From positions 181,819-205,818 of the forward strand of contig CAXXHO010000005.1 in the NCBI GenBank assembly GCA_963667725.2: a stretch of 24,000 bases of DNA, in the 5' to 3' direction. Within the stretch, counting starts at the first letter, position 1; each line of letters starts with the position of its first letter. Source of the stretch: Treponemataceae bacterium. Its GTDB lineage: Bacteria; Spirochaetota; Spirochaetia; Treponematales; Rectinemataceae. A model generated the notes under the pieces. It was given only the letters and a program-made list of their open reading frames with translations, did not search any database and was not told the origin of the DNA. A program made the position numbers and the translations under genes. Shown here piece after piece: positions 2,291 to 24,000 of this stretch.

Positions 2291-2476
2291 GGGGCCTCGA
2301 ACGAAGCGGGTGCATCAGTGGAGACGTCTGGCCCAGAGTGTGCCACCGTATCTTCCCCTTTCGGGATCGCGAATCGGGAGAACAAGAAATTCTTGAGTCA
2401 GGAATCATCGAAACGACGATTTCCCCGTGACCCATTCCCGGGGCGCCTGTGGGAAAATCTATGCCTGGAGGCCCTC

Positions 2477-3514
2477 ATGAGCCAGCAGCCGGTCACCTAC
2501 GCCACCTCGGGCGTGGACATCAATCGTCAGGATGAGGCGCTGCGGCGCATCAAGCCCCTGGTGAAGGCCACCAAGACTGCGGGGGTGCGCTCGGACATCG
2601 GCCTCTTCGGCGGCCTCTTCAGCGCCCAGTTCCCCGAAGCCCAGCCCATCCTGGTTTCCTCCATGGACGGCGTGGGCACCAAGATGAAGGTGGCCCGTCT
2701 CGCCAACACTTGGAACACCGTGGGTGGCGATCTGGTGAACCACTGCATCAACGACATCCTGGTGCAGGGCGCCCGGCCCCTCTTCTTCTTGGACTACATC
2801 GCCGCCCAGCGCCTGGAGCCCGAGGTCATCGAGTCCATCGTTTCCGGCATGGCCAATGCCTGCCGCAACGCGGGCTGCGCCCTCATCGGCGGTGAGTTGG
2901 CGGAGATGCCCGGCGTCTACGAGACGGGCGAAGTGGATGTGGCGGGCACCATCGTGGGCGTGGTGGATCAGGCCGAGCTGCTGCCGCGCCTGGAGGCCAT
3001 GGGCGAAGGCGATGTGCTCATCGCCCTGCCCAGTTCCGGCCTGCACACCAATGGCTACTCCCTGGCCCGCAAGGTCTGCTTCGAGGTGGCTGGGCTCAAG
3101 GTGACGGACAAGCTGCCGGGCACGGAGCAGACCGTGAGTGAAGCCCTGCTGGCCATCCACCGCAGCTACCTCACCCAGCTCATGCCGCTGGTGAAGGCCA
3201 AGAAACTGGTGGCCATGGCCCATATCACCGGCGGCGGGCTCACGGACAATATCCCCCGGGTGCTGCCGGAACACCTGGACGCGGCCATCGAGACGGGCAG
3301 CTGGCAGATTCCGGCCCTCTTCAATTTCCTCATCGAGAAGTCCCAGATGCCCCTGGAAGATGCCCGCCGCAGCTTCAATCTGGGGGTGGGCATGGTGGTG
3401 ATCGCCAAGAAAGCCGATGCTGCCGAAGTTCTGCTGGCCCTCAAGAACGCGGGTGAAGCCGCCTGGGTCATCGGCGAGCTGGTGGCAGGCAAGGGCGAAG
3501 TTCGCTACCGGTAG
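2477..3514 (+). CDS. purM: Phosphoribosylformylglycinamidine cyclo-ligase (AIR synthetase, PurM)
   Basis: Within ORF 1496..3514 the real start is the ATG at 2477 (MSQQPVTYATSGVDINRQDEALRRIKPLV...). Conserved PurM blocks are present: SSMDGVGTKMKVA, DLVNHCINDILVQGARPLFFLDY, GGELAEMPGVY, SSGLHTNGYSLARK, HITGGGL. The upstream 327 codons of the ORF are antisense to the kinase gene and are not coding. Confidence 0.95.
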   Translation: MSQQPVTYATSGVDINRQDEALRRIKPLVKATKTAGVRSDIGLFGGLFSAQFPEAQPILVSSMDGVGTKMKVARLANTWNTVGGDLVNHCINDILVQGARPLFFLDYIAAQRLEPEVIESIVSGMANACRNAGCALIGGELAEMPGVYETGEVDVAGTIVGVVDQAELLPRLEAMGEGDVLIALPSSGLHTNGYSLARKVCFEVAGLKVTDKLPGTEQTVSEALLAIHRSYLTQLMPLVKAKKLVAMAHITGGGLTDNIPRVLPEHLDAAIETGSWQIPALFNFLIEKSQMPLEDARRSFNLGVGMVVIAKKADAAEVLLALKNAGEAAWVIGELVAGKGEVRYR

Positions 3515-4192
3515 ATGTCCGGCGACATCCTCATCATCGAGGACGAATCCGCCATCGCGGATACCATCGCCTACGCCCTGAAGACCGAGGGTTTCACGCC
3601 CCATCGCAGCGAATTGGGGGGCGAGGCCCTGGAACGCCTCCGCCGCGAATCCTTCCGGCTGGCCATTCTCGATGTGGGTCTGCCGGATCTCTCGGGCTTC
3701 GAGGTTTGTCGGCGCCTGCGCACCTTTTCCGCCATCCCGGTCATCTTCCTCACGGCCCGCAGCGAGGAAGTAGATCGCATCGTGGGGCTGGAAATCGGCG
3801 GGGACGATTACATGGCCAAGCCCTTCAGCCCCCGGGAACTGGTGGCGCGGGTCCGCGTGATCCTGCGGCGGATGGAGCGCATGGAAGCGGCGCCGAGCAC
3901 CACGGGGTTCGAGTTGGACGAAGGGCGCCATCGCATCCGCTTCTGCGGCCAGGATCTGGACCTCACCCGGTACGAATACCTGCTGCTGAAATGCCTCATG
4001 GCCTCGCCGGAGCGGGTGTTCACGCGCCTGCAGCTCATGGAGCAGGTGTGGGCCGGGGCGGAGGAGAGCGGAGATCGCACCGTGGATACCCACGTGAAGA
4101 CCCTGCGCGCCAAGTTGCGGCTGGCGAATCCCCAGCTGGATCCCATCCAGACTCACCGGGGACTGGGCTACAGCCTCGCGAGGCTGACATGA
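3515..4192 (+). CDS. creB: OmpR-family response regulator, CreB-like
   Basis: 225 aa. The REC domain reads ILIIEDESAIADTI...LAILDVGLPDLSGFEV...DDYMAKPFSPREL. The winged-helix output reads LTRYEYLLLKCL...VDTHVKTLRAKL...IQTHRGLGYSL. Its ATG immediately follows the purM stop, and its stop overlaps the creC start (ATGA at 4189-4192). The CreB assignment rests on the downstream creC and creD homologues. Confidence 0.8.
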   Translation: MSGDILIIEDESAIADTIAYALKTEGFTPHRSELGGEALERLRRESFRLAILDVGLPDLSGFEVCRRLRTFSAIPVIFLTARSEEVDRIVGLEIGGDDYMAKPFSPRELVARVRVILRRMERMEAAPSTTGFELDEGRHRIRFCGQDLDLTRYEYLLLKCLMASPERVFTRLQLMEQVWAGAEESGDRTVDTHVKTLRAKLRLANPQLDPIQTHRGLGYSLARLT

Positions 4193-5616
4193 AGCTCAGC
4201 GTCCGGGTCCTGCTGGGGTTCTTCCTCATCGTGGGGTTGGCGGCCTTCTTCGTGCTGCGCATCTTCATGGCGGAGGTGAAGCCCGGCGTGCGGCAGGGTA
4301 TGGAGGTGGCCCTGGTGGATTCGGCGCACCTGCTGGCGGAGCTGGCGGCGCCGGAGTTGGAAGCGGGCACCCTGGCCCAGGGCGAATTCGCACAGGCCGT
4401 GGAACGCTACGTCCATCGCACACCCAAGGCCAAGATCTGGGGCATGGAGAAGCGTGTGGCCGAGTTCCGGGTGTACGTCACCGATGCCCGGGGCTTCGTC
4501 GTCTTCGATTCCGAGGGCCAGGCCGCAGGCCAGGACTATTCGCGCTGGAACGATGTGCTCCTGACCCTGAAGGGGGAATACGGGGTGCGCAGTTCCCGGG
4601 CGGTGGCCGGGGATGAGAAGACCTCCCGGATGCATGTGGCCGCGCCGATCCTCAGGGGGGATCGACTGCTGGGGGTGCTCACGGTGGTGACGCCCACGGC
4701 GAGCGTGGTGCCCTACGCCCAGCGCAGCCAGCGGCGCGTTTTCCGGGCGGGGCTGCTGCTGATGGGGGGCGCCCTGCTGACGGGCCTGGCCCTCTCCTGG
4801 TGGCTCACCCGGAGCCTGGGCAGGCTTCAGACCTACGCCCGGCAGGTCGCGGAAGGACACAAGGCCAGCCTGCCCGCCCTGGGGGGAGGGGAGTTGGCGG
4901 AACTGGGCCAGACCCTTGAGGCCATGCGCGAGAAACTGGAGGGACGGAAGTACCTGGAGCGTTACATTCAGGCCCTCACCCACGAGATGAAGAGCCCCCT
5001 GGCGGCCATCCACGGGGCGGCGGAACTGCTGGAGGAACCCTTGCCCGAAGCGGAGCGGCGCCTCTTCGTGGCCAACATCCAGGAACAGGAACTGCGCCTC
5101 CAGCGCCTGGTGGAGCGCATGCTCGGCCTGGCCGGACTCCAGCATCGCCAGGGCCTCGAGGCTTCCGTGCCGCTGGTCCTTGGAGAGATCGTGGCCACTG
5201 TGGCTTCGGCCAAGGCGGCGGGTTGCGCCGCGAAGGATCTGAGGGTCGAAATCGTCGGCGCACAAGGCTCCCAGATCCGAGGCGAGGCCTTCCTGGTGGA
5301 ACTGGCCCTGTCCAATCTGCTGGACAATGCCATCGACTTCTCGCCGGTGGGTGGGCGCATCCAGGTGGTCCTTGAAGCCACCGAGGCGCGGGTCGCGGTC
5401 ATCGTGAAGGATCAGGGGCCGGGCATTCCCGAGTACGCGGCCGGTCGGATCTTCGAACCCTTCTACTCGCTGCCCCGGCCTGCCACGGGCAAGAAGAGCA
5501 CCGGCCTAGGCCTGAGTTTCGTGCGCGAAGTGGCGGAGCTCCACGGCGGAAGGATCGAGGTGCGCAATGGGGTCGGCGGGGGCGTGGAGGCGCGGCTGGA
5601 GTTTCCTGCCATCTGA
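4189..5616 (+). CDS. creC: Sensor histidine kinase, CreC-like
   Basis: The start is the ATG at 4189 inside ORF 3706..5616. The N-terminus MKLSVRVLLGFFLIVGLAAFFVLRIFMAEVKPGVRQ...LLAELA...GQDYSRWNDVLLTLKGEYGVRSSR is colinear with my recollection of E. coli CreC (LLLGYFLLV...KEVKPGVR...GQDYSRWNDVWLTLRGQYGARS). The H-box is LTHEMKSPLAAI and the HATPase boxes are LLDNAIDFS, VKDQGPGIP and STGLGLSFV. Confidence 0.85.
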   Translation: MKLSVRVLLGFFLIVGLAAFFVLRIFMAEVKPGVRQGMEVALVDSAHLLAELAAPELEAGTLAQGEFAQAVERYVHRTPKAKIWGMEKRVAEFRVYVTDARGFVVFDSEGQAAGQDYSRWNDVLLTLKGEYGVRSSRAVAGDEKTSRMHVAAPILRGDRLLGVLTVVTPTASVVPYAQRSQRRVFRAGLLLMGGALLTGLALSWWLTRSLGRLQTYARQVAEGHKASLPALGGGELAELGQTLEAMREKLEGRKYLERYIQALTHEMKSPLAAIHGAAELLEEPLPEAERRLFVANIQEQELRLQRLVERMLGLAGLQHRQGLEASVPLVLGEIVATVASAKAAGCAAKDLRVEIVGAQGSQIRGEAFLVELALSNLLDNAIDFSPVGGRIQVVLEATEARVAVIVKDQGPGIPEYAAGRIFEPFYSLPRPATGKKSTGLGLSFVREVAELHGGRIEVRNGVGGGVEARLEFPAI

Positions 5617-5700
5617 TGCGCTTCACAGAGCCTTCACACAGGCTCATCCTCCCTTCTTGAACGCGCGACATGCTTCCTCCATTCCTCATGGAGGCTGTTT

Positions 5701-7059
5701 ATGCGAAGAATCTTGCTCTGGAAGGGCCTGGCTGTGTTCGGGCTCGCGTTGTTGCTGCTCATTCCCCTGGCCATGATCCAGGGCCAGGTCGAGGCCCGGA
5801 ACCAGCGGCAAAAGGAGGTCAAGGCCAACGTCGCCGAGAGTGCGGCGGGCTGTCAGCAGGTGGTGGGGCCGCTGCTGGTGTTCACCTACACCGAGCGAGT
5901 GGAGGAGGCCGAGACCAACGAAAAGACCGGCCAGGTCACGCTGCGCACTCGAGAGATCCATGGCCATCAAATCCTGCCGCCCCAGGATCTCCAGATCCAA
6001 GGCGAGGCCCGGGTGGAGGAGCGCCATCGGGGCCTCTACAAGGCCCAGCTCTATCATCTGACGGCGCGGCTCACAGGCCGTTTCTCCCTGACGCCGAGTT
6101 TTGGCATGGATCTCTCGGGCCGCGCCATCACGCCCGGCCCCAGCTTCCTGGTGGTGGGCATTCCCGATCTGCGGGGCATCCACAACCGGCCCCAGGTCAA
6201 GTGGGAGGGCAGGGCCCTGGATTTCCGCCCGGGGGTTTCCCGGAGTCGCGTCCCCATGGGCATCCAGGCCGATCTGGGCACCCTGACCTTCCAGGACAAG
6301 AAGGACTTCGCCTTCGAGATTCCCCTGGAACTCACGGGCTCCCAGAGCCTTTCCTTCGCCCCGGTGGGCGAGAATACCCAGGTGTCCCTGCGCGCCAATT
6401 GGCCCAGCCCCAGCTTTGGGGGCCGATTCCTCCCATTGGATCACCAGGTTGGGGACAAGGGCTTCGAGGCCCAGTGGCAGGTCTCCAGCTTGGCCCGGAG
6501 CCTGGATTCCATCCTCAAGGTAGAAGGGCACGGACCCACCGAGGAGGCCTTCGACATCGCCTTTATCGAGCCGGTGAACATCTACCTGCAGACGGAACGG
6601 GCCGTGAAGTACGGCTTCCTCTTCGTGGGGTTGGTCTTCGCGGGGTTCTTCTTCTTCGAGCTGCTCCGGAAACTGCGGATCCATCCCATGCAGTACCTCC
6701 TGGTGGGTTTCGCCCTGGCGATGTTCTTCTTGCTGCTGCTGAGCCTCACCGAGCACATCCCCTTCCTGTGGGCCTACCTCGCGGCCAGCGCAGCCTGCAT
6801 TGCTCTGCTGGGTGCCTACCTGATCCATGTGCTCAAGAGTGTGGCCCATGGCCTTGGTTTCGCAGGGGGGACTCACGCTGCTCTTCGGCGTGCTCTACGG
6901 ACTCCTGATGTCCGAAGACAATGCGCTGCTGATGGGCTCGGTGCTCCTGTTCACGGCCTTGGCGGCGGTGATGCTGGCCACCCGAAAGCTGGATTGGTTA
7001 CGGCCTCTCGGGGAAAGAGAGTGGGGCCGAATAAGACGCAGGCCTCCTGGTTCTCGTAG
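5701..7059 (+). CDS. creD: Inner-membrane protein CreD-like; frameshifted near the 3' end, with the conserved C-terminus continuing in the +1 frame to 7120
   Basis: The 452-aa ORF begins MRRILLWKGLAVFGLALLLLIPLAMIQGQVEARN. It has internal CreD-type blocks (NWPSPSFGGRFLP, GFEAQWQVS, ERAVKYGFLFVGLVFAGFFFFELL, IHPMQYLLVGFALAMFFLLLLSLTEH). After the G6 run at 6865..6870 the annotated frame turns into low-complexity Arg/Ala/Gly sequence. The +1 frame (ORF 6827..7120) carries the expected LTLLFGVLYGLLMSEDNALLMGSVLLFTALAAVMLATRKLDW. Confidence 0.85.
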   Translation: MRRILLWKGLAVFGLALLLLIPLAMIQGQVEARNQRQKEVKANVAESAAGCQQVVGPLLVFTYTERVEEAETNEKTGQVTLRTREIHGHQILPPQDLQIQGEARVEERHRGLYKAQLYHLTARLTGRFSLTPSFGMDLSGRAITPGPSFLVVGIPDLRGIHNRPQVKWEGRALDFRPGVSRSRVPMGIQADLGTLTFQDKKDFAFEIPLELTGSQSLSFAPVGENTQVSLRANWPSPSFGGRFLPLDHQVGDKGFEAQWQVSSLARSLDSILKVEGHGPTEEAFDIAFIEPVNIYLQTERAVKYGFLFVGLVFAGFFFFELLRKLRIHPMQYLLVGFALAMFFLLLLSLTEHIPFLWAYLAASAACIALLGAYLIHVLKSVAHGLGFAGGTHAALRRALRTPDVRRQCAADGLGAPVHGLGGGDAGHPKAGLVTASRGKRVGPNKTQASWFS

Positions 7060-14053: not shown

Positions 14054-14851
14054 GTGCGAAAGATGACATTCATGCTTACGGTATTCGCCATGGTCTTCGC
14101 GATGGTCTTCGCCGCCGGCGCCCAAACCGCCAAGCTTCCCGACCTCAAGGGAAGAAAAATCATCGCCGTGACCGAAAACGCCTATCTCCCCCTCAATTTC
14201 GTCGACGCTAAATCAGGCAAGGCCATGGGATGGGAATACGACGCGGTGAACGAGATCGGCAAGCGTCTCAACGCCAAGATCGAGTGGAAGATCACTTCCT
14301 GGGACACCATGATCCAGGCCGTGCGCGACGGACAGTTCGACGTGGGCATGGACGGCATCACCATAACGGACGAAAGGAAGGGCCAGGTCGACTTCTCCAG
14401 CCCCTACATGGTGAGCCAGCAGTTCATGCTCGTGCGCGCCAGCGAAAACCGCTTCCAGGACGAAAAGGCCTTCTCGGCCAACCCCAAACTCCTCATCGGG
14501 GCCCAGGCGGGCACCACGAACTTCTATGTGGCCGTCTACAGCGTCCTCGACGGCGACGAAGCCAATCCCCGCATCAAGCTTTTCGAGACCTTCGGCGCCA
14601 CGGTCCAGGCCTTGATAGCCGGAGACATCGATATGGTGCTTATGGACGCCGCCTCCAGCAAGGGCTACATCGGCGCCTACCCCAACAAGCTGAAATCGGT
14701 CGGCGGCGCCCTCGGCACCGAAGAATTCGGATTCATCTTCAAGAAAGGTTCCGACCTCGTCGGCCCCTTCAACGCGGCCATCGCCGCCCTCAAGGCCGAG
14801 GGATTCCTCGACAGGCTTAACACGAAGTGGTTCTTCGAGTACAAGCCTTAA
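14054..14851 (+). CDS. Amino-acid ABC transporter substrate-binding protein (SBP_bac_3 family)
   Basis: 265 aa. AAGGAGG lies 6 nt upstream of the GTG at 14054 (an alternative ATG is at 14063). The signal peptide is MTFMLTVFAMVFAMVFAAGAQT. Family blocks include GWEYDAVNEIGKRLN, WDTMIQAVRDGQFDVGMDGITITDERK, VDFSSPY and LNTKWF. Confidence 0.9.
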   Translation: MRKMTFMLTVFAMVFAMVFAAGAQTAKLPDLKGRKIIAVTENAYLPLNFVDAKSGKAMGWEYDAVNEIGKRLNAKIEWKITSWDTMIQAVRDGQFDVGMDGITITDERKGQVDFSSPYMVSQQFMLVRASENRFQDEKAFSANPKLLIGAQAGTTNFYVAVYSVLDGDEANPRIKLFETFGATVQALIAGDIDMVLMDAASSKGYIGAYPNKLKSVGGALGTEEFGFIFKKGSDLVGPFNAAIAALKAEGFLDRLNTKWFFEYKP

Positions 14852-14903: not shown

Positions 14904-14945
14904 CCCTGTCTGTGCCAGTAATGGCACAGACAGGGGATTTTCTGT
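14904..14945 (+). terminator. Rho-independent terminator after the amino-acid binding-protein gene
   Basis: A perfect 14-bp stem CCCTGTCTGTGCCA / TGGCACAGACAGGG with a GTAA loop, followed by GATTTTCT. It lies 53 nt after the stop codon. Confidence 0.75.
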
Positions 14946-15082
14946 GCTAAATAATGAACATAGAATTTAAAAATAAGCGAAGCACCCTACGCATTGGCTT
15001 TTCGGGCAGGACGCCGTATCGGCAATTTATTTCATGGAATGAAAATAGCACATTGCTAGATTCACTGCTTTGGTCAGGCTCT

Positions 15083-15098
15083 TGGCATGGGCTTTGCT
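15083..15098 (+). promoter_or_regulatory. Sigma-54 (-24/-12) promoter
   Basis: TGGCAT-gggct-TTGCT matches TGGCAC-N5-TTGCW with correct GG-to-GC spacing (12 nt). It sits in an AT-rich 290-nt intergenic region, 44 nt upstream of the ATG at 15142 (RBS AAGGAGG at 15128..15134). A sigma-54 activator is encoded in the same cluster. Confidence 0.7.
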
Positions 15099-15141: not shown

Positions 15142-16074
15142 ATGAAACGAATCGTTGGCGTTCTTTTGTGCGCGTTGGTGCTGATAACCGGTGTTTCCGC
15201 CCAAGCCAAGAAGAAGCAGGTCGCCGTCTGTCTTCCTGGATCAGTCGAGTTCTTCGCCGTGGAGCGCAAAGGCATGGACAAGGCAGCCGCCGAGTTCAAC
15301 CTTCAGCTCACCTATTCCGACGCCGAATGGGACGCGGGAAAACAACTGAACCAGGTGGAGAATTTCGTGGCCAAGGGCGTGGACGCCATCATGCTCTGCT
15401 CCCGCGATCCTCTCGCCCTGCTTCCGGCGGTAAAAATGTGCAACGAAGCCAAGATCCCCCTCATTACGTTCACCAACACGCTCGGCTCCGACAAGAACGG
15501 ACAGTATCCCGGCGTCGTTACCTTCATTGGCATCAACGACCTCTCCTATGGCACCATGATGGGCAAGATGGCCAAACAGCTCCTGGGCGACAGAGCCGCG
15601 AACATCGTCCTCATCGAGGGTGAGCCTGGAACCAGCGCCCAGCGCATGAGAAACGACGGTTTCAGGGCCGAACTCGCGAACAGCAAGTACAAGATCATCT
15701 ACAGCCAGGCGATTCCCGGCTGGACCAAGGAAGGATCGCTCGCCGCCATGGAAGCCTTTCTCCAGAAAGGACAGGATTTCGATCTCGTCTCAGCCGAATG
15801 GACGGACGGCGCGGTCGCGGCTGCCAAAGCCATCAGGGAAGCCGGACTCAAGGGGAAATACATCACCGCCCTCGAGTATTCCAAGGCGCTCCAGGCCGAG
15901 ATCAAGGCTGGAAGCGTCAACATGACGGCCTACGCTTCCATCATAGACATGGGTTATCTGGCAGTCCAGAAAACCGCCGAATTCCTCTCCGGAAAGAAGA
16001 TCGATTCCTACATCGAAGTCATTCCCGTCATCGTCGACAAGAACAATGTGAGCAAACACGTTCCCGAGATGTGA
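15142..16074 (+). CDS. Sugar ABC transporter periplasmic binding protein (RbsB/PBP type-1 family)
   Basis: 310 aa. The signal peptide is MKRIVGVLLCALVLITGVSAQA. Blocks typical of ribose/monosaccharide binding proteins are present: VENFVAKGVDAIML, EAKIPLITF, IVLIEGEPGTSAQRMRNDGF, AMEAFLQK, GAVAAAKAIREAGL. Confidence 0.9.
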   Translation: MKRIVGVLLCALVLITGVSAQAKKKQVAVCLPGSVEFFAVERKGMDKAAAEFNLQLTYSDAEWDAGKQLNQVENFVAKGVDAIMLCSRDPLALLPAVKMCNEAKIPLITFTNTLGSDKNGQYPGVVTFIGINDLSYGTMMGKMAKQLLGDRAANIVLIEGEPGTSAQRMRNDGFRAELANSKYKIIYSQAIPGWTKEGSLAAMEAFLQKGQDFDLVSAEWTDGAVAAAKAIREAGLKGKYITALEYSKALQAEIKAGSVNMTAYASIIDMGYLAVQKTAEFLSGKKIDSYIEVIPVIVDKNNVSKHVPEM

Positions 16075-16092
16075 TCCCATCCTCCAACAGTC

Positions 16093-16124
16093 GGCGGGGA
16101 ATCCGCTTCGGTGGATTCCCCGCC
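16093..16124 (+). other. Intercistronic GC-rich stem-loop (no U-tract)
   Basis: GGCGGGGAATCC-gcttcggt-GGATTCCCCGCC has a perfect 12-bp stem. It lies between the binding-protein stop (16074) and the next ATG (16140). No T-run follows, so it is more likely an mRNA-stabilising or partial-attenuation element than a full terminator. Confidence 0.5.
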
Positions 16125-16139
16125 GCTCAAGAGAAAACA

Positions 16140-17405
16140 ATGGAACCTAAATCGATACGAAACGGCGGTAAAATCGCCGCGCAGCTGATGGTCGGCCCCG
16201 AACAGCTGGCCTATTTCGGCGAAGCCGGAATACTGGCATGTCTGGACTATGCGCTCGATGTCCTCGCTCCCCGGGAGCTGATTCTTTCCATAACCGATTC
16301 ATCGAGCGACCTGGCTCGAAAGATCACGGAGCGCTGTGACAAGGTGGGTACAAGGGTTTCTCTATGGGTGATGGTTTTCGCCGACCGCCCCGCCGGCCTG
16401 TCTTCTTTTCCCCATGTCCAGGACGCTGAAGGCAGGACGGGATACGGCGCCACCGGCGCCTGGGAGAATATCGGAAAGGGCGACGAAAAGTTCCTATTCT
16501 ATTGTCCCAGCGCCCTGGATAAGGACGAGAAAGGCATAGAATCCGCGCTTCGGGCGGCGAAATCCATTGGCGCGCGGGGCATCTTCCTCGACCGGATACG
16601 ATACCCCTCCCCCGCCAACGGCTTCGAATTCATGAGCGCCTGTTCCTGCCCCCTATGCAGGGAAGCCTTTCGCGCCTGGAGCGGCGAAAAATGGCCAGAC
16701 CTAGCTTCGCTCTTTGTCCGGCATGCGGCTCATGGCGTCGGCGGCCCTCAAGCCTTCGTCGAGAGCGCCGAGAAAGTACTTCAATTCCGCTCGCGGATGG
16801 TCAATAACGCGGTGGCGCGTTACGCCGATGCCGCTCACGCGGAGGGCCTCAGCGTCGGTCTGGATCTCTTCGCGCCCGCGTTGGCCGGTTTCGTCGGCCA
16901 AGATTATCATTCACTGTCGCGCCACGCGGATTTCATGAAACCGATGCTCTACTGCAAAGCCTGGGCGCCGGCAGGCATGCCCCTGGAATTTTTCCTTTTA
17001 ATGAAGGGGCTTGAAGAATCAGGCATCGACGCATCAACAGCCGTAAGCTTCGTTTCCAAGTTCTCCGGAATAGACCGAGAATACCTGGATGCCGTGCGCC
17101 GGAAAGGAAATTTCCCGGCTTCGCTCGCCGCATCAGAACTGCTCCGCTGTCAGCGGGAAATAGATCCCGCAGCGGCTCCAAAACCAGAAATCTACGCGGG
17201 CATCGAGCTGGTTCAGCACGAAGCCTACGATACTCAAATCGACGACGGTGTACGCGACTCGTACCTGGAAAGCCTCTCGGGCCAAAACATCGCCGTATGC
17301 TGGAATATATTGTACGTGCCCAAGCGGCATATCGAGGCGATAGCCTCGATGGACGCTATCGCGTCGATCGACGCGATTTCACCGCATCACGAGGACTCTA
17401 AATGA
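16140..17405 (+). CDS. Uncharacterised cytoplasmic protein, possibly a glycoside-hydrolase-like (beta/alpha)8 barrel
   Basis: The real start is the ATG at 16140 inside ORF 15798..17405 (421 aa). There is no signal peptide and no TM segments. ARGIFLDRIRYPSPANGFEFMSACSCPLCREAF resembles the G-x-x-x-D-Y-I-R-F/Y-P strand-4 block of DUF4015/GHL-type putative glycosidases, followed by a CxCxxC cluster. Its stop overlaps the ATPase start (ATGA at 17402). The function call is weak. Confidence 0.75.
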   Translation: MEPKSIRNGGKIAAQLMVGPEQLAYFGEAGILACLDYALDVLAPRELILSITDSSSDLARKITERCDKVGTRVSLWVMVFADRPAGLSSFPHVQDAEGRTGYGATGAWENIGKGDEKFLFYCPSALDKDEKGIESALRAAKSIGARGIFLDRIRYPSPANGFEFMSACSCPLCREAFRAWSGEKWPDLASLFVRHAAHGVGGPQAFVESAEKVLQFRSRMVNNAVARYADAAHAEGLSVGLDLFAPALAGFVGQDYHSLSRHADFMKPMLYCKAWAPAGMPLEFFLLMKGLEESGIDASTAVSFVSKFSGIDREYLDAVRRKGNFPASLAASELLRCQREIDPAAAPKPEIYAGIELVQHEAYDTQIDDGVRDSYLESLSGQNIAVCWNILYVPKRHIEAIASMDAIASIDAISPHHEDSK

Positions 17406-18946
17406 ACATTCAAGAAAATTTGCGAACGCCAGAGGGCGGAAATGCGGCTGCCCCTCCCGTCATTCTCGCGATGAAGAACATTTCAAAAAGCTTCCTGGGC
17501 GTCCGGGTATTGGACAACGTCGATTTCTATCTCAGAAAAGGCGAAGTCGTCGCTTTTCTCGGCGCCAACGGAGCGGGAAAATCGACGCTCATGAAGATTC
17601 TCTCCGGCGTCTATAACGCGGACAGCGGCCAGATATTCCTTCACGACAAACCGGTTCAATTCAGCAAACCGATCCATGCCTACAGGGCGGGAATCAGCGT
17701 CGTGCACCAGGAATCGAGCCTCATTCCCACCCTGACCATCATCGAAAATCTATTTCTCGGCCGTGAATCCACAAAGGGTTCGGGGATACTGAACGGCAAG
17801 CTCATGCAAGCTGAATACGAAAAGCTCTGCGAACGTTTCGATTTGGATATTCCCTCCGCGACGAAGGTACGCGATCTCAGCCCCGCGCAGAAAAAAATGG
17901 CCGAGATAATGAAGGCGGTGTCGCGCAACTGCAGCATCATCATAATGGATGAGCCCACCGACGCTCTCAGCTCCCAGGAAACCGCCCTCCTGTTCAAAAC
18001 CGTCGGTGACCTTAGGCGCGAGGGCATGAGCATCGTTTTCATAACGCATTTTCTGGACGAAGTAAAAAGCATCGCCGACAGCGCGACGGTGATCCGCGAC
18101 GGGAAAATAGTCGCCGAGCGCGTCTCGCCTCTTCTGCCGATCAAGGAAATAGTCACCTTGATGCTCGGCAAGGAAGTGGCGGAACGAAAACCCTTCGTAA
18201 GGGCTCATGGCGAAAAGGAAGAGCTGGTGGTAAAGAACCTCGGCCGCCGCGCCGAATTTTCGGATATTTCATTCGAACTTCACGCGGGCGAAGTGCTCGG
18301 AATCGCCGGCGTCGTGGGATCGGGCAAGACGGAACTGGCGAGGACACTCTCAGGCGCATCGGTCAGCCACAGCGGTTCCATGACACTGGAGAACAGACCG
18401 ATACAGCTCCGTTCCCCATACGATGGGGTCAAGCATGGTATCGGCATGGCGCCGGAAGACCGTAAAACGCAGGGACTGATCCTCGACCATGACATTCAAG
18501 GCAATATTTCCCTTTCATCCCTGCCCAGCATCGTCAAGTTCGGATGCATCAACGCAAAAAAGGAAAAAAGCCGTACGATGTCTGTGGCCGCCCAACTTTC
18601 GATAAAGTTCGCCAGCCTTGATCAGCGGGTAAAATTCCTGAGCGGCGGCAACCAGCAGAAATGCGTTCTGGCTCGATGGCTGCTGGCCTCCCCGAAGGTT
18701 CTTATTCTGGATGAGCCCACGCGCGGCATCGATGTCGCCACGAAGGAACAGATCTACGCGACGGTGCGCGATCTCGCGTCGAAAGGAAAATCCATCATCT
18801 ATTTCTCTGGAGATCCCGCCGAACTCCTTGTGGTCTCCGACAGGGTGTTGGTTATGCAAAAAGGGAAGATCAAGCGTTCTTACGCGATTCCGCCATCTGA
18901 AGATATACTACTAAAAGATATGATTGAGGTGAACAATGAGCGGTAA
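17402..18946 (+). CDS. Sugar ABC transporter ATP-binding protein with tandem NBDs (CUT2, RbsA/MglA-like)
   Basis: 514 aa. NBD1 has GANGAGKST, AGISVVHQESSLIPTLTIIENLFLGR, LSPAQKKMAEI, IIIMDEPTDALS and FITH. NBD2 has GVVGSGKTELA, LSGGNQQKCVLARWL and LILDEPTRGIDV. Confidence 0.95.
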   Translation: MNIQENLRTPEGGNAAAPPVILAMKNISKSFLGVRVLDNVDFYLRKGEVVAFLGANGAGKSTLMKILSGVYNADSGQIFLHDKPVQFSKPIHAYRAGISVVHQESSLIPTLTIIENLFLGRESTKGSGILNGKLMQAEYEKLCERFDLDIPSATKVRDLSPAQKKMAEIMKAVSRNCSIIIMDEPTDALSSQETALLFKTVGDLRREGMSIVFITHFLDEVKSIADSATVIRDGKIVAERVSPLLPIKEIVTLMLGKEVAERKPFVRAHGEKEELVVKNLGRRAEFSDISFELHAGEVLGIAGVVGSGKTELARTLSGASVSHSGSMTLENRPIQLRSPYDGVKHGIGMAPEDRKTQGLILDHDIQGNISLSSLPSIVKFGCINAKKEKSRTMSVAAQLSIKFASLDQRVKFLSGGNQQKCVLARWLLASPKVLILDEPTRGIDVATKEQIYATVRDLASKGKSIIYFSGDPAELLVVSDRVLVMQKGKIKRSYAIPPSEDILLKDMIEVNNER

Positions 18947-19946
18947 CAATATCGATGCTAAGGCAGCGGCAACCATTCAAGCGGGCGGTATGGATGCCTC
19001 AAAGAAGAGGGGGCAGTACTACAAAGAAATTTTAAAACGCTACGGCCTGCTCATCAGCTTCTTTGTGCTCTCGCTGGGGATATCCCTGCTGACGCCCAAC
19101 TTCCTCTCCTCCAGGAACCTGCTCAACATCCTCAGGCAGAGTACGATCGTCGGCATCATGGCCATAGGCACCACCTTCGTCATCATCGGTGGCGGATTCG
19201 ATATCTCGGTCGGATCGGTGCTTGCCTTGTCCGCGGCGTTGGCGCTCGGGCTCCAAGGCTCGATGCACTGGGCCTTGGCCGCCACGATCGCTATCCTCGC
19301 CGGCGCGCTGATAGGTCTCTTCAATGGTATTCTCGCCGCGAAGATTCACATCGTTCCCATGATTGCGACGTTGGGTACCTCCACCATCGTACGCGGCCTC
19401 GTCTACCTCTATACCGGCGGCTACCCCATCAACGGTCAGCAGCCAGCCTTCGAGGTGATCGGCTCCGGCTATCTGTGGGGCATCCCCGTACCCGTCATCA
19501 TAATGATCGCGCTTGTCGTCATTTTTCAATTCATTCTCTCCAAGACGCAGCTCGGCCGCTACTGCTGCGCCGTCGGCGGCAACAAGGAAGCGACGAGGCT
19601 CGCCGGCGTCTCCGTGGACTTCTACCACGTCATGACTTTCCTCATCGGCGGTCTCATGGCGGGCATCTCGGGCGTCGTCTATGCGTCGCGGCTTTCGTCG
19701 GCCACGCCCCTAGCGGGGCAGAATTACGACATGGACGCCATCGCGGCGGTGGTCATCGGCGGCACATCGGTTTCAGGCGGCGAAGGCACGGTTCTCGGCG
19801 CCATGATAGGCGTCCTTCTTCTCACCGTCGTCACCAACGCCTTCAATCTCCTCGGCGTGCCGGTCTTCATCCAGTACGTCATAAAGGGCCTGATCATCCT
19901 GGTCGTCGTGGGCATCGACTCCTACTCCAAGAAGAGGCCCCGCTAA
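18936..19946 (+). CDS. Sugar ABC transporter permease (RbsC/BPD_transp_2 family)
   Basis: 336 aa. It overlaps the ATPase stop by 11 nt and has ~10 hydrophobic segments. Family blocks include NLLNILRQSTIVGIMAIGTTFVIIGGGFDISVGS, TLGTSTIVRGL, GGNKEATRLAGV and DAIAAVVIGGTSVSGGEGTV. Confidence 0.9.
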   Translation: MSGNNIDAKAAATIQAGGMDASKKRGQYYKEILKRYGLLISFFVLSLGISLLTPNFLSSRNLLNILRQSTIVGIMAIGTTFVIIGGGFDISVGSVLALSAALALGLQGSMHWALAATIAILAGALIGLFNGILAAKIHIVPMIATLGTSTIVRGLVYLYTGGYPINGQQPAFEVIGSGYLWGIPVPVIIMIALVVIFQFILSKTQLGRYCCAVGGNKEATRLAGVSVDFYHVMTFLIGGLMAGISGVVYASRLSSATPLAGQNYDMDAIAAVVIGGTSVSGGEGTVLGAMIGVLLLTVVTNAFNLLGVPVFIQYVIKGLIILVVVGIDSYSKKRPR

Positions 19947-19997: not shown

Positions 19998-21377
19998 ATG
20001 AAAACGAAGGTACTTATCGTCGACGACGAGCAGCCCATGAGGGCTTCGCTCGGCGAACTCTTGCAGAGTGAAGGCTACCAGACGATGTTGGCGGACGGCG
20101 CATCTTCCGCGCTCGAACAGACCAGCGACGGCCATCCCGACATAGCCATCGTGGACGTGCGCATGCCGGGCCGCGGCGGCCTAGACCTCATCCAGGAGCT
20201 CCGCGATATATCCCCCAACCTCAGGATTTTCATGATGACAGGCTACCCGTCCGTGGAAACCGCGGTGTTGGCCATGAAATACGGCGCAATGGACTTTTTC
20301 ACCAAGCCGCTGGATTTCAGGAAGCTGCGTGACCAGCTGAATCAATGCAAAATGGCAGGCGCCAATCAGCAGCCGGAAACGCCCAATCATGCCGTCGGCG
20401 CCCTCTACGGAGAAAGCCTGGTCATTCGCGAACTGCGGGAATCGATCGAGCGCATCGCCCCCACGGAAGCCTCCGTCATCATCACGGGCGAAAGCGGCAC
20501 GGGAAAAGAATTAGTAGCCGAAGCCATACACAGCCAATCACTGCGTTCCGCCCATCCTTTCATGAAGATCAACTGCGCGGCGATACCTGACACACTTCTC
20601 GAAAGCGAGCTGTTCGGCTATGAAAAAGGTGCCTTCACGGGCGCTCTTGCCCGAAAAGCGGGGCTTTTCGAAAGCGCCAGTCAGGGCAGCGTCTTCCTCG
20701 ATGAAATCGGGGATATGGACATCCGCCTTCAGTCGAAACTCCTTCATATACTTCAGGGAGGGGAATTCCGCAGGTTGGGCGGCACAAAGGACCTCAACGC
20801 CAATACCCGGATCATATCGGCGACCAACCAGAACCTGCATACGCTCATCGAAAAAGGCATGTTCAGGGAAGACCTTTATTACCGGCTCTCGGTGATATGC
20901 ATCCAGACTCCCCCGCTTCGCGAGCATATAGAGGACATTCCCGCGCTCGCGAAACGCTTCGTCGCCGATTTTTCGCGTTCATACGGCAAGGAAGAACCCC
21001 TCATCGACGATGAGTTCCTGGCTATCCTCGAGGCGCAGCCCTGGCCCGGAAATGTCCGTGAGCTGAAAAACTGCATCGAGCGCGCCATCATCTTCTGTGA
21101 CGGTCGCCATCTCGGCACTCGCCATCTTCCGCAGCAGTACAAGATGGGAATTGGCAGAAATGTGGTCGTTTCCTGTCTCGATGAATCGAAGGAATCGGAT
21201 GCATCCCGGAATTCGATGAGCGAGGCGCGGCAGGACCTGGAACGCAGCATGATTCTTGAAGCGCTCGACAAGGCAAAGGGAAACAGGACGGAGGCCGCCA
21301 GGCTGCTTGGAATACCGCGACGAACCCTCTATAACAAGCTCGAAAGGCTTGGCATGGACGACGATGCAAGGTCTTGA
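19998..21377 (+). CDS. Sigma-54-dependent response regulator (NtrC family: REC, AAA+, Fis-type HTH)
   Basis: 459 aa. The REC domain reads VLIVDDEQPMR...IAIVDVRMPGRGGL...KPL. The AAA+ domain has GESGTGKELVAEAIH, the GAFTGA loop (EKGAFTGA), VFLDEIGDM and RVIS-type RIISATN. The C-terminal HTH is GNRTEAARLLGIPRRTLYNKLERLG. Confidence 0.95.
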   Translation: MKTKVLIVDDEQPMRASLGELLQSEGYQTMLADGASSALEQTSDGHPDIAIVDVRMPGRGGLDLIQELRDISPNLRIFMMTGYPSVETAVLAMKYGAMDFFTKPLDFRKLRDQLNQCKMAGANQQPETPNHAVGALYGESLVIRELRESIERIAPTEASVIITGESGTGKELVAEAIHSQSLRSAHPFMKINCAAIPDTLLESELFGYEKGAFTGALARKAGLFESASQGSVFLDEIGDMDIRLQSKLLHILQGGEFRRLGGTKDLNANTRIISATNQNLHTLIEKGMFREDLYYRLSVICIQTPPLREHIEDIPALAKRFVADFSRSYGKEEPLIDDEFLAILEAQPWPGNVRELKNCIERAIIFCDGRHLGTRHLPQQYKMGIGRNVVVSCLDESKESDASRNSMSEARQDLERSMILEALDKAKGNRTEAARLLGIPRRTLYNKLERLGMDDDARS

Positions 21378-23238
21378 GCTCCGTGGCGTCACGGCTTCCT
21401 ACAGGGAGACGATAGCCCTCGATGAGTTCAGCCTGATAGCGGCGAGCGGCGAAGTGCATGCCATCATCGGGGAACGCAGGGCGGGAAAATCATGTATCGT
21501 TTCCCTCCTCGAAGGAAAGATGACCCTCAATAAAGGCAAGATTCTCATCGATGGCATCCCCCTGGCGAAACGCAATCCAAAGATTATGGCCCAGGCTGGT
21601 ATTGGCGTTTTCCATCAAACGCAAAACATCATTCCCACACTTTTGCCCTGGGAAAACATCATGGCCGGGAGGATGCCCATCGGTTTTTCATCGGGCAACA
21701 AGCGCGATGAAACTGAGGCCTTTATCCTGACGCTCTGCGAAAAGTGGAGTCTCCGTCCAGATCTGCGCCTGCCTATGCATCGACTGACGAGAATAGAATC
21801 CACCGTTATCGAGCTTGGGCGAGCCTTGGCGTTCAATCCAAGGATCCTTATCCTGGATGAGCCTTCCGGTCGCTTTACCGCCGATGAGATGCAGGTCCTC
21901 TATTCCGTGCTGGCGGAAAGGCGGAGCGGCAATGAGGCAGTTCTCTATGCGGCCTCCAATGTCGACGAGGTGCTGAGGATCGCCGATATCATCTCGATTA
22001 TAAAAGCGGGGAAAATTGTGGAAACCCAGCCGGCAAGAAGCCTGGACCGAGAGGACATTGTCGATCTCGCCTATTCTTTCAACGAGTCGAGGGAAGAGCT
22101 GTTCAGCAAGAACATTCGCCTGTTGAAATACAAGAAGTACAATGAGGAAATAGTCTCCAATCTCCCGCTGGGAACGGTCTTTTTCGACGGGGAAGGCGAA
22201 ATATACCTTTCCAATCAATCAGCCTGCGACATTATCTGCACGGATCCAAAAACGTTGATTCCCGCGTCAAAGGCGGGAGAACCTGCTGCGGCGATTCCAC
22301 TTACCGCCTTGGCGCTGCGGAATGGTTTCGGCGATAAACGACTGGCGCTGATCATGGATTCCATAAGATCGGGAGTATCGGCGAAATGGAAACAGTGGCC
22401 GACGGCAAACGGCAGATTCGTCAACGTGATGACCTACCCCTTCCACGATAGTTTGAAGCAGCTATTCGGAACCATCCTCGTACTTCAGGACGTAACGGAA
22501 GAGAGGGCGACGCGGGACTATCTGGCAAGCCTTGACCGAACTTCGTCCATCGCCCAGCTGGCGACGGGCATAGTTCACGAAGTGAACAATCCTCTCGGCA
22601 TCATTTCCAACTATGTGGAACTCCTGCTCATGAAGACAAACGACGAGTATGCTCGTGAAAGGCTCGAAATTATCCGAAATGAAATAAAGCGAATTCATGG
22701 AAGCATGCTCAATCTCCTGTCCTTTTCGAGCGTCGATTCGTCAGCATTGAGCCCGCATGACATCAACGCGGTCATCAAGGATTCGCTTGTCCTGCTTGAA
22801 TACGAAGCGGAACGTCTCGGCATCAGCCTGGAAGCTGATATACCTAGCGAACCGGTGATGCTGCGCATAGATCCCGCCAGAATCAAACAAGTCCTGATCA
22901 ATCTCCTCATGAATGCGCTCGATGTTGCGGGACGATGTGGTTCCATAGTAGTCCGACTTCGAAAGCAGGCCGATAATAGCGCCCTCCTGCAGGTACAGGA
23001 CAGCGGCCCCGGCATCCCGCCCGCCAAGATCGCCAGTCTTTTCACGCCCTTCCTGAGCGAAAAAAGCGGAAGCGGACATGCCGGACTTGGTCTTTCAATC
23101 TGCAAGCATATAACGGAAGTCCATGGCGGCAGGATTTGGTGCGAAAGCGAACCGGGCAATACCGTCTTTTTCATTGAACTACCCTGCGAGGGACCAATGC
23201 AGGTAAAAGGACCGCATTATGCGCAGACCGCGAATTAA
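21364..23238 (+). CDS. Soluble sensor histidine kinase with an N-terminal ABC-ATPase-like (CUT2 NBD1-type, degenerate) domain, then PAS, HisKA and HATPase_c
   Basis: The start is the ATG at 21364 inside ORF 21256..23238 (624 aa); it overlaps the regulator stop by 14 nt. Residues 1-~235 are colinear with NBD1 of the ATPase at 17402. Examples: GEVHAIIGERRAGKS vs GEVVAFLGANGAGKS; AGIGVFHQTQNIIPTLLPWENIMAGR vs AGISVVHQESSLIPTLTIIENLFLGR; ILILDEPSGRFTADE vs IIIMDEPTDALSSQE. A PAS-like region spans aa ~255-385. The H-box is IVHEVNNPLGII, the N box LINLLMNALDV, G1 VQDSGPGIP and G2 GHAGLGLSI. I saw no hydrophobic TM segment. Confidence 0.9.
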   Translation: MQGLELRGVTASYRETIALDEFSLIAASGEVHAIIGERRAGKSCIVSLLEGKMTLNKGKILIDGIPLAKRNPKIMAQAGIGVFHQTQNIIPTLLPWENIMAGRMPIGFSSGNKRDETEAFILTLCEKWSLRPDLRLPMHRLTRIESTVIELGRALAFNPRILILDEPSGRFTADEMQVLYSVLAERRSGNEAVLYAASNVDEVLRIADIISIIKAGKIVETQPARSLDREDIVDLAYSFNESREELFSKNIRLLKYKKYNEEIVSNLPLGTVFFDGEGEIYLSNQSACDIICTDPKTLIPASKAGEPAAAIPLTALALRNGFGDKRLALIMDSIRSGVSAKWKQWPTANGRFVNVMTYPFHDSLKQLFGTILVLQDVTEERATRDYLASLDRTSSIAQLATGIVHEVNNPLGIISNYVELLLMKTNDEYARERLEIIRNEIKRIHGSMLNLLSFSSVDSSALSPHDINAVIKDSLVLLEYEAERLGISLEADIPSEPVMLRIDPARIKQVLINLLMNALDVAGRCGSIVVRLRKQADNSALLQVQDSGPGIPPAKIASLFTPFLSEKSGSGHAGLGLSICKHITEVHGGRIWCESEPGNTVFFIELPCEGPMQVKGPHYAQTAN

Positions 23239-24000
23239 GCAGACGGCGCTGGATCGCATCCCCTGGTGGCTCGTCGCCATCGTAGGCCTAGGGGGCTGGC
23301 TCCTCGCGTCCGCCATGGCCACGGCCGATTATCGCGTCATATTCGGCGCCGTATCCCGCGGCCTCGGCGTCACGCTGATGGTATCGCTCATCGCGTATGC
23401 CGCATCGATACTGTTCGGTCTAGGGCTGGGGCTTCTGCGCGCTTCGCGGCTTCGCGCCGCACGCGAAGCCGCGACCTTCTACATCGAGCTGGTACGCGGC
23501 CTTCCAATGCTCGTCATTCTGTACTACATAGCATTCGTTGGCGCTCCCGCCCTAGCTCAAGCGCTCAACGTCATCCTGACCCCACTCATCGCGACGGGGC
23601 TCATCGGCCGCGTCGAAGCGCGCAGCTTCGATTTCGCCACGCGCGCCGTCCTGGCCCTCACCCTCGGCTACTCGGCTTTCATCGCGGAAATCTTCCGCGC
23701 GGGCATAGAGAGCGTGGACAAAGGCCAGGTCGAAGCCGCCGAAGCCCTCGGGATGTCACATCTTCAGGTGATGTGCCGCATCGTTCTGCCCCAAGCCATC
23801 AAGAATGTCCTGCCCGCCCTCGGCAACGAATTCGTCGCCATCATCAAGGATTCCTCCCTGGTCTCGGCCCTCGGCGTCCAGGATATCACCCAGCTGGGCA
23901 AGGTCTATGCCGCGTCCACTTTCAAATTTTTCGAGACTTACAACGCCGTCGCGTTCTTCTACCTCTGCCTCACGCTCAGCCTATCCCTTCTCGTGCGAGC
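23219..24000 (+). CDS. Amino-acid ABC transporter permease (HisM/GlnP family), 3'-partial
   Basis: This gene is absent from the ORF track because it runs off the window. From the ATG at 23219 the translation reads MRRPRIKQTALDRIPWWLVAIVGLGGW...FYIELVRGLPMLVILYYIAF...AFIAEIFRAGIESVDKGQVEAAEALGMSHLQVMCRIVLPQAIKNVLPALGNEFVAIIKDSSLVSALGVQDIT. This contains the EAA loop and polar-amino-acid permease blocks. It overlaps the kinase stop by 20 nt. Confidence 0.85.
   Translation, partial: MRRPRIKQTALDRIPWWLVAIVGLGGWLLASAMATADYRVIFGAVSRGLGVTLMVSLIAYAASILFGLGLGLLRASRLRAAREAATFYIELVRGLPMLVILYYIAFVGAPALAQALNVILTPLIATGLIGRVEARSFDFATRAVLALTLGYSAFIAEIFRAGIESVDKGQVEAAEALGMSHLQVMCRIVLPQAIKNVLPALGNEFVAIIKDSSLVSALGVQDITQLGKVYAASTFKFFETYNAVAFFYLCLTLSLSLLVR

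Follow-up and report, generated by a model that had tools for sequence, protein, structure and literature searches.

Introduction

In the Pst system, PhoR is a kinase without an external sensor that reads the state of an ATP-binding cassette (ABC) importer at its cytoplasmic side, that of the nucleotide-binding domains (NBDs), and the Pst signal is passed to the cytoplasmic PAS domain of PhoR (PMC5775613; PMC4423584, PMC13577022). Mutants of PstB that are locked in different conformations give opposite PhoR outputs (PMC5775613). The transporter BceAB and the kinase BceS likewise form one sensory unit, in which the kinase controls the expression of that same transporter (PMC8534201; PMC10314905); BceS is governed by the activity of BceAB, and in another kinase a fused Amt transporter domain serves as the sensor (PMC8534201). 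Transporter parts serving as kinase inputs include the Amt domain of the Amt-kinase KsAmt5, 5TMR domains with the fold of an ECF S-component, and binding-protein domains (PMC8534201; PMC11109136). Here we describe a kinase encoded in a 24,000-nucleotide stretch of a Treponemataceae bacterium genome (assembly GCA_963667725.2, contig CAXXHO010000005.1, positions 181,819 to 205,818; the whole stretch is hereafter called the window, and coordinates are counted from its first letter). The product of the gene at 21364..23238, on the forward strand, is a soluble histidine kinase of the NtrB/AtoS type whose input end is a diverged, single NBD of the kind that forms the first half (NBD1) of CUT2 (ribose-type) transport ATPases.

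In the openly searchable full-text literature we found transporter-coupled kinases but no account of one that carries a fused NBD, and the protein looks like a so far undescribed way of wiring transport to gene regulation. On the basis of architecture and synteny, we regard the NBD as a new type of input domain among transporter-coupled two-component systems.

Results

Domain organisation of the kinase

The gene is one stop-free open reading frame (ORF) of 624 aa, in which Pfam recognises ABC_tran (PF00005; residues 20-168, E 1.6e-15, 58.3 bits against a cut-off of 25), HisKA (residues 397-459, E 7.8e-10) and HATPase_c (residues 503-608, E 1.3e-26), bearing out the NBD-kinase fusion that an earlier, sequence-only reading of this DNA had claimed. 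PAS matches at 322-381 stay below threshold in the window kinase; PAS families are annotated in many members of its family. Among NCBIfam models, residues 4-235 align to about positions 5-238, the first NBD, of AraG, YtfR, XylG, AlsA, RbsA and MglA, and residues 252-609 align to AtoS. These equivalog scores are far under their cut-offs (126 against 689 for AraG, 195 against 646 for AtoS), and the full-length kinase is covered by no NCBIfam model; it is not AtoS. We take the ATG at 21364 as the start, since the homologues begin at the same methionine and in the other loci, too, the start overlaps the end of the regulator gene before it; an upstream TTG at 21256 was rejected on the same two grounds.

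An AlphaFold2 model, built from a 32-sequence family alignment (mean pLDDT 80.7, about 90 within the NBD), gives the layout of the protein. The NBD1-derived input domain (residues 1-237 both in our division and in the model; 21364..22074, forward strand, as for all of the domains) superposes in Foldseek on the solved NBDs LptB and T. maritima 1ji0, with a target template modelling (TM) score of 0.80-0.85. It is followed by a connecting helix (residues 238-268; 22075..22167; helical at 243-265 in the model), for which the family consensus is LAYSFxxSREELxxKNxxLLxYKxYNExI, and then by a PAS-like alpha/beta domain (residues 269-376; 22168..22491; 270-376 in the model) that carries a variable insertion at 299-314. 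The DHp domain (HisKA; residues 377-455; 22492..22728; 378-453 in the model) has long helices at 378-424 and 428-453, and the catalytic ATP-binding (CA) domain (HATPase_c; residues 456-624; 22729..23238; 463-608 in the model) runs to the stop codon. The C-terminal part of the model is matched by the PAS/LOV histidine kinases 4gcz and 8a6x.

All of the sequence features of a HisKA-type kinase are present: an H-box, HEVNNPL, in a DHp helix, with the phospho-acceptor His405 at 22576-22578, and intact N, G1, F and G2 boxes in the CA domain. Across the family alignment H405, E406, N408, N409 and P410 are invariant, as are N513, N517, G548, F563 and G574-L577, and D546, G550 and F560 are among the conserved CA positions. 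Thus the PAS, DHp and complete catalytic domains that had been read from the sequence are all there, the first of them with a weak Pfam match. We found no transmembrane segment in the kinase, in which the top 19-residue hydropathy is 1.28, against 2.84 in the permease encoded nearby. The kinase is a soluble protein and, lacking a membrane segment, cannot by itself see an external substrate.

Spread and conservation of the fusion

A homologue search covering 5.8 billion protein clusters recovered the protein itself, in identical form, and beyond it about 52 clusters that share its Pfam architecture, ranging from 89% down to 29% identity and from 590 to 645 aa in length; PF00005, PF00512 and PF02518 occur together in 52 of the 53 best matches. 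The clusters that share the architecture come from four source collections (NCBI, ENA, JGI and Logan assemblies). All of the records that name an organism, six in number and the whole basis for the taxonomic range of the family, belong to Spirochaetota: Rectinemataceae (the 89% relative), Spirochaetia, Sphaerochaeta, a metagenome-assembled genome labelled Treponema, and 'Spirochaetota bacterium'. Two further searches add to this. A scan of GTDB genomes was keyed on generic kinase motifs, and 3 of the 80 loci among the matches listed are true family members (L001-L003). A profile search with the NBD plus linker had its best 150 matches filled by two-NBD CUT2 ATPases, whose scores are summed; about 13 family-type representatives stand among these 150, and none was seen there that joins NBD and linker to other output domains. 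The family is therefore at least as large as these searches indicate, and its members pass in public annotation as 'ATP-binding protein' or 'AtoS'.

An assembly or sequencing error might have joined part of an ATPase gene to that of a kinase, or the first 235 aa might be made as a separate protein, both being doubts that the sequence-only reading had itself raised. One shortened relative could be counted in favour of this: P0123, of 363 aa and 96% identity, lies on a 131-kb contig and falls into the same 90% cluster as the window protein. However, this sole shortened copy breaks off inside the PAS domain, away from the NBD/kinase junction, so that it gives no indication of a separate N-terminal protein; probably it reflects a frameshift, or a pseudogene, in a different assembly. 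The architecture is moreover continuous in about 52 clusters from independent assemblies, down to 29% identity, which rules out a fusion created by a missing stop or misassembly. With no internal stop in the ORF, with invariant residues throughout the family, and with a junction helix that is better conserved than the NBD and PAS domains on either side of it, an artefact is next to impossible and the explanation is effectively refuted. The fused architecture is real and under selection.

Mean pairwise identity in the family alignment is 52.6% for DHp, 45.7% for the connecting helix, 40.2% for the NBD, 39.9% for the catalytic domain and 27.9%, the lowest of all domains, for PAS. The NBD is therefore conserved as strongly as the catalytic domain, and the connecting helix, which exceeds the NBD, PAS and CA domains and is itself exceeded by DHp only, indicates that the junction between NBD and kinase is not a neutral linker.

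These figures also bear on the question of which domain senses the signal. The PAS domain could be the true ligand sensor, for the imported sugar or for a metabolite made from it, perhaps by protein X (a product of the same gene block, described below), with the NBD doing no more than dimerising the kinase or tethering it near the transporter. In soluble kinases, ligands in the cytoplasm are usually bound by PAS domains, and PAS is the sensor in 4gcz and 8a6x; a most variable domain, with indels, would also fit different ligands in modules with different transporters. A tether or dimeriser, however, would have no need to keep the Walker A Lys, the Q-loop Gln and the Walker B Asp-Glu unchanged in relatives of 29-89% identity, the conservation of the NBD-PAS helix suggests that a signal passes through it, and the PAS scores of the window kinase are sub-threshold. 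We consider it unlikely that PAS is the true sensor; the NBD, which the sequence-only reading had called the sensor module, is a putative one.

Origin and motifs of the NBD

We built a neighbour-joining tree from the kinase NBDs together with the NBD1 and NBD2 halves of co-encoded and other CUT2 ATPases. The kinase NBDs are monophyletic and sister to all CUT2 NBD1 halves, with a mean identity of 30% to NBD1 and 22% to NBD2. Tree and NCBIfam alignments agree with the earlier reading of the domain as a ribose-type (CUT2) NBD1, here joined by the conserved helix to PAS-DHp-CA. The break point of the fusion is exactly the NBD1/NBD2 junction of RbsA-type proteins, and the kinase looks as if it were an RbsA-like protein in which NBD2 had been exchanged for helix-PAS-DHp-CA. 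The kinase clade branches in the same way as the neighbouring ATPases do, and the tree thereby points to a single ancient fusion that would have been followed by co-diversification with the transporter. As it has an NBD1-like half only, and not the two fused NBDs of a CUT2 transport ATPase, the kinase is not a transport ATPase, though derived from one.

CUT2 ATPases are asymmetric, NBD1 combining GxNGAGKST with a degenerate signature, LSxxxxQ, and NBD2 having the canonical LSGGNQQK; the kinase NBD retains the motif pattern of NBD1. The landmarks of the domain occur in the order in which they had first been noted: LELRGV, the Walker A motif GERRAGKS (residues 36-43; 21469-21492), the Q-loop Gln at Q85 (21616-21618), IPTL..ENI..GR, LTRIES at the signature position, ILILDEP with the D165-E166 of an hhhhDE Walker B (21856-21861), YAASN at the H-loop position, and IIKAGKIVE. 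Across the 32 aligned sequences, G36, G41, K42, Q85, D165 and E166 do not vary; nor do N98 and G102, which belong to the ENIxxG block close to the Q-loop. The invariance of the core residues argues that nucleotide and Mg binding are retained.

The remaining motifs depart from the canonical pattern to differing degrees. Walker A still fits GxxxxGK[ST], with Lys42 invariant, yet the P-loop is specific to the family: GxNGAGKST of CUT2 has become G[EAD][RH]R[AS]GK[ST], with NG changed to RR or HR, and the fourth-position Gly to Arg, in nearly all members. The change places one or two basic side chains where the signature motif of a partner would approach. The signature itself, LTRIES in the window and L[ST]xx[EQ] as the family consensus, lacks both glycines of LSGGQ in all members, a degeneracy that genuine CUT2 NBD1 shows in the same form. 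The H-loop His is kept only in a distant subclade (P0030-P0047, with YISH) and is Ser, Thr or Asn elsewhere, the window and its clade having YAAS/YAST. By the Pfam gathering threshold and by fold the domain belongs to the ABC NBD superfamily, within which it counts as derived and non-canonical.

That the signature glycines and the H-loop His are gone speaks against normal ATP hydrolysis, and general ABC enzymology makes a canonical ATP-sandwich homodimer of the kinase NBD unlikely as well. In CUT2 ATPases, NBD1 normally pairs with the LSGGNQQK of NBD2, a signature that a homodimer of the kinase would not supply. The earlier suggestion of ATP-driven sandwich homodimerisation is thus doubtful, the signature being degenerate in 32 of 32 aligned members and the H-loop His absent in the window clade.

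The kinase NBD, with its invariant nucleotide-binding residues and its decaying features of hydrolysis and sandwich formation (degenerate signature, loss of the H-loop His), might be a free cytoplasmic nucleotide sensor, responding to ATP/ADP or energy charge and gating the expression of an ATP-consuming importer without touching the transporter. KdpD, a kinase with an N-terminal P-loop ATP-binding domain, can be counted in its favour. Such a sensor, however, leaves unexplained why the domain should come specifically from CUT2 NBD1 and why linkage to a CUT2 transporter should persist through rearrangements and in a duplicated module (see below), and the kinase already binds ATP in its catalytic domain. 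We regard this explanation as quite improbable.

Alternatively, the kinase NBD might pair with the transport ATPase, for example in a hetero-sandwich with NBD2 in which LSGGNQQK completes the Walker A site of the kinase, the kinase then reading or inhibiting the cycling of the ATPase. The kinase NBD keeps exactly the NBD1 half of the composite site, including the catalytic Glu166, for which the NBD2 signature would be the natural complement. Against this, NBD2 is covalently tied to its own NBD1 and would be accessible only by displacing it, an orphan NBD2 gene is absent from all of the modules examined, and the RR/HR of the altered P-loop would face the partner signature and may be incompatible with it. 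Pairing with the transport ATPase is accordingly very improbable in our estimate.

The conserved neighbourhood of the kinase

The operon context, with its sigma-54 regulator, transporter and -24/-12 promoter, is the strongest clue to the function of the kinase. The kinase gene is the last of a co-oriented block that encodes a binding protein, protein X, an ATPase, a permease, a regulator and the kinase, all on the forward strand and with tight or overlapping spacing. The periplasmic, sugar-binding, RbsB-like protein (15142..16074) has a signal peptide and matches Peripla_BP_4 (E 1.5e-48); its top NCBIfam match is RbsB, under the equivalog cut-off. The CUT2 transport ATPase (17402..18946) has two fused NBDs (ABC_tran twice, E 2.3e-55; XylG, RbsA and AraG at about 1e-140 in NCBIfam), NBD1 with GANGAGKST and a degenerate signature and NBD2 with the canonical LSGGNQQK. 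The single CUT2 permease is RbsC/AraH-like (18936..19946; BPD_transp_2, E 2.3e-46 in Pfam; RbsC, 4e-79 in NCBIfam), and the presence of one permease gene implies a homodimeric membrane domain. The AtoC/NtrC-like, sigma-54-dependent response regulator (19998..21377) consists of a receiver, an AAA+ sigma-54 activator domain and a Fis-type helix-turn-helix (HTH) domain (Response_reg, Sigma54_activat at 6e-68 and HTH_8; AtoC and NtrC in NCBIfam), and the start of the kinase gene overlaps its stop by 14 nt.

We compared the window with fourteen more loci, whose kinases are family members of 29-52% identity. The regulator gene lies directly upstream of the kinase gene in all of them, with an overlap of 4 or 14 nt, and this adjacency and translational coupling support the pairing of kinase and regulator. 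A CUT2 transporter adjoins the regulator-kinase pair in 14 of the 15 loci, the contig ending at the regulator gene in the remaining one. Each linked transporter comes with a complete ATPase and with just one permease gene, the latter in keeping with a symmetric kinase dimer; the transporters are co-oriented, divergent or downstream depending on the locus. In an uncultured member of Spirochaetota (L003, 4950-11779) two regulator-kinase pairs stand back to back, in divergent orientation, each beside its own CUT2 ATPase and permease, so that the whole module appears to have been duplicated. That the linkage survives both rearrangement and duplication indicates that regulator, kinase and transporter are a functional unit.

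Between the binding-protein and ATPase genes lies the gene for protein X (16137..17405), a conserved protein of 422 aa, which occupies the same position in L081, L083, L085, L087 and L090; a 535-aa reading of ORF 15798-17405 was rejected, the conserved protein starting at about 16137. Protein X has no Pfam match over threshold (DUF4015 is sub-threshold, E 0.0067), and its homologues are all annotated as hypothetical. The AlphaFold2 model (pLDDT 92.3) is a TIM barrel with weak similarity in Foldseek to the glycoside hydrolase (GH) barrels GH18, GH66 and GH191, and the invariant residues are C123, the CxCxxC cluster C169-x-C171-x-x-C174, D152, R155, D243, K268 and E357. Protein X may process the imported sugar.

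Genes of the URO-D family (uroporphyrinogen decarboxylase/methyltransferase-like) adjoin distant modules, at L088 2073-3164 and 14967-16223, at L090 9008-10135 and at the P0047 locus, one of the L088 genes being accompanied by a Met_synt_B12-like gene. Their recurrence beside distant modules hints that some modules serve substrates beyond plain sugars.

In the window, the module is flanked by genes of a polar amino-acid ABC transporter, a SBP_bac_3 binding protein at 14054-14851 and a permease at 23219-24000 whose ATG overlaps the kinase stop by 20 nt. The GC fraction is 0.51-0.59 in the module, 0.63-0.68 in the first 8 kb and 0.61 after the module, and the module may have been inserted as a block into an amino-acid transporter operon. 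Further signalling genes occupy 515-7059: a PAS hybrid kinase (515-2290, minus strand), an AIR-synthase-like gene ending at 3514, and a creBCD-like cluster made up of an OmpR-type regulator (3515-4192), a HAMP kinase extending to 5616 and CreD (5701-7059). Many long overlapping ORFs in the same region are by-products of high GC.

A sigma-54 promoter and candidate enhancers

Upstream of the operon, a promoter of the -24/-12 sigma-54 type, TGGCATGGGCTTTGC, lies at 15083..15097 on the forward strand and ends 45 nt before the binding-protein ATG. It has 1 mismatch to TGGCAC-N5-TTGC and is the sole match at ≤1 mismatch in the 24 kb of the window. In L081, L085, L087, L003 and L001 the binding-protein gene is preceded, at a distance of about 50 nt, by a strict -24/-12 match that is usually unique in its locus; L083 and L086 have weaker versions. 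The window thus has the parts of a sigma-54 two-component regulon, namely a regulator with receiver, AAA+ and HTH domains and a promoter with GG at -24 and GC at -12.

Two dyads of the form TGTGC-N8-GCACA lie further upstream on the forward strand, at 14911-14928 (perfect) and 14943-14960 (1 mismatch). Measured from centre to centre, 32 bp separate the two, and they precede the -24 element by about 155 and 123 bp; the chance expectation is 0.57 matches per window at ≤1 mismatch. In L083 and L087 the binding-protein gene likewise has equivalent dyads of 18 bp ahead of it, and it is plausible that the dyads are enhancer sites (upstream activating sequences, UAS) for the regulator. The first of the dyads lies within a terminator-like hairpin at 14904-14935, which stands behind the upstream gene and has a perfect 14-bp stem followed by GATTTTCTGT. 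With a core, TGTGCCAGTAATGGCACA, that is similar to NtrC-type enhancer dyads, the hairpin may have a dual role as terminator and enhancer. We would expect the kinase-regulator pair to control the transporter operon, which in the window includes the pair's own genes, and probably the kinase switches its neighbouring transporter on.

Discussion

It is fairly probable that the output of the kinase is physically coupled, in some way, to the neighbouring transporter. For the form of this coupling we favour, tentatively and at a little less than an even chance, a sensor whose NBDs dock on the permease dimer and report its conformation to the kinase. Docking on a permease dimer had been suggested in the sequence-only reading, and it gains indirect support from the complete CUT2 transporter with a single permease that stands beside the kinase wherever there was sufficient DNA. 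The DHp dimer would present two NBD-like domains, and these would dock, as genuine NBDs do, on the coupling helices of the homodimeric permease. Docking of a substrate-loaded binding protein on the outside would favour closure of the two ATP-loaded NBD-like domains, a movement that could be passed through the conserved helix to PAS and on to DHp, switching autophosphorylation. ATP would be bound, since Lys42, Gln85, Asp165 and Glu166 are invariant, but would be turned over slowly or not at all, owing to the degenerate signature and the missing H-loop His. It would thus be a bound cofactor for closure and not a fuel, and the NBD-like domain a conformational reporter rather than a motor. The kinase would then phosphorylate the regulator, which would activate the transporter operon from the upstream dyad sites.

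A more specific form of this coupling, possible though on the unlikely side, is that on some of the permease dimers the kinase dimer takes the place of the transport ATPase. Binding protein, permease dimer and NBD-kinase dimer would in that case make up a dedicated, non-transporting receptor, in which an outside ligand acts through the coupling helices on ATP-loaded, catalytically crippled NBDs and through these on the histidine kinase.

Several points weigh against docking on the permease. The contact between NBD and permease is one that we infer, and the transporter has a full ATPase of its own, so that the kinase must compete for docking sites or use a subpopulation of permeases. The Q-loop/ENI block, though conserved, is also a requirement of the fold and so is no proof of a coupling-helix interface, and the helix of the helical subdomain at residues 105-130 is variable. 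A kinase homodimer would contain two ATP sites with degenerate signatures, a pairing unseen in native CUT2 ATPases, and the RR/HR change in the P-loop might weaken or alter nucleotide binding. The NBD of the window kinase is 27.8% identical to its cognate NBD1 and 26.1% identical to non-cognate ones, gaps of 1-3 percentage points of this kind being uninformative. For mapping of the interface we found no solved CUT2 permease structure, nor was there a CUT2 ATPase near the top of the structure matches. Finally, the first of the UAS-like dyads doubles as the stem of the terminator-like hairpin.

In both Pst/PhoU/PhoR and BceAB/BceS the signal runs from an ABC transporter to a kinase, and the way in which the conformational cycle of the NBDs is read out is still under debate. 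A kinase with a fused NBD would be a minimal, soluble and genetically compact system for testing whether the opening and closing of NBDs, or their docking on a permease, can act as a kinase switch; it is surprising to specialists and experimentally tractable. It would add the cytoplasmic ATPase to the transporter components recruited as kinase inputs, which so far comprise binding proteins, Amt, S-component-like and sodium-solute symporter domains. It also draws attention to a conserved regulon of Spirochaetota, in which a sugar-type CUT2 importer and an uncharacterised GH-like barrel come under sigma-54 control. If the receptor reading is true, this would be a transmembrane receptor assembled from the parts of an ABC importer; if the NBD is only a nucleotide sensor or a tether, the family would still be a defined, if more ordinary, new class of input domain.

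Comparison with known systems

The kinase NBD is like the NBD1 of CUT2 ATPases (RbsA, AraG, XylG, YtfR) in its full fold, its Walker A Lys, its Q-loop, its LIPxL..ENI..G block and its Walker B DE. The signatures of the two are degenerate in the same manner, they are sisters in the tree and they give the best NCBIfam alignments. Compared with these ATPases, the kinase has one NBD only, PAS-DHp-CA instead of NBD2, a changed P-loop and, in the window clade, no H-loop His. The kinase-regulator pair resembles the AtoS/NtrB-type kinases and their sigma-54 regulators in its PAS-DHp-CA core, HEVNNPL H-box, receiver/AAA+/HTH_8 regulator and -24/-12 target. However, AtoS is membrane-bound, with a periplasmic loop and HAMP, and NtrB senses through PII, whereas the window kinase is soluble and has a 237-residue ABC NBD at its N-terminus.

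The nearest functional analogues are Pst/PhoU/PhoR and BceAB/BceS, both of which are coupled non-covalently. In these co-sensing kinases, BceS with BceAB and PhoR with PstSCAB, output depends on the transporter; the window kinase is likened to them by gene linkage, at 14 of 15 loci. PstSCAB-PhoU-PhoR uses the working transport ATPase PstB and a non-covalent link through PhoU, whereas the window kinase has an extra NBD paralogue fused upstream of its PAS domain. BceS, an intramembrane-sensing kinase, is in contact with the permease BceB inside the membrane and, unlike the window kinase, has no fused transporter domain. Kinases with fused Amt, 5TMR or binding-protein domains, in turn, use the substrate-binding or membrane parts of transporters, while the window kinase uses the cytoplasmic ATPase part, the NBD.

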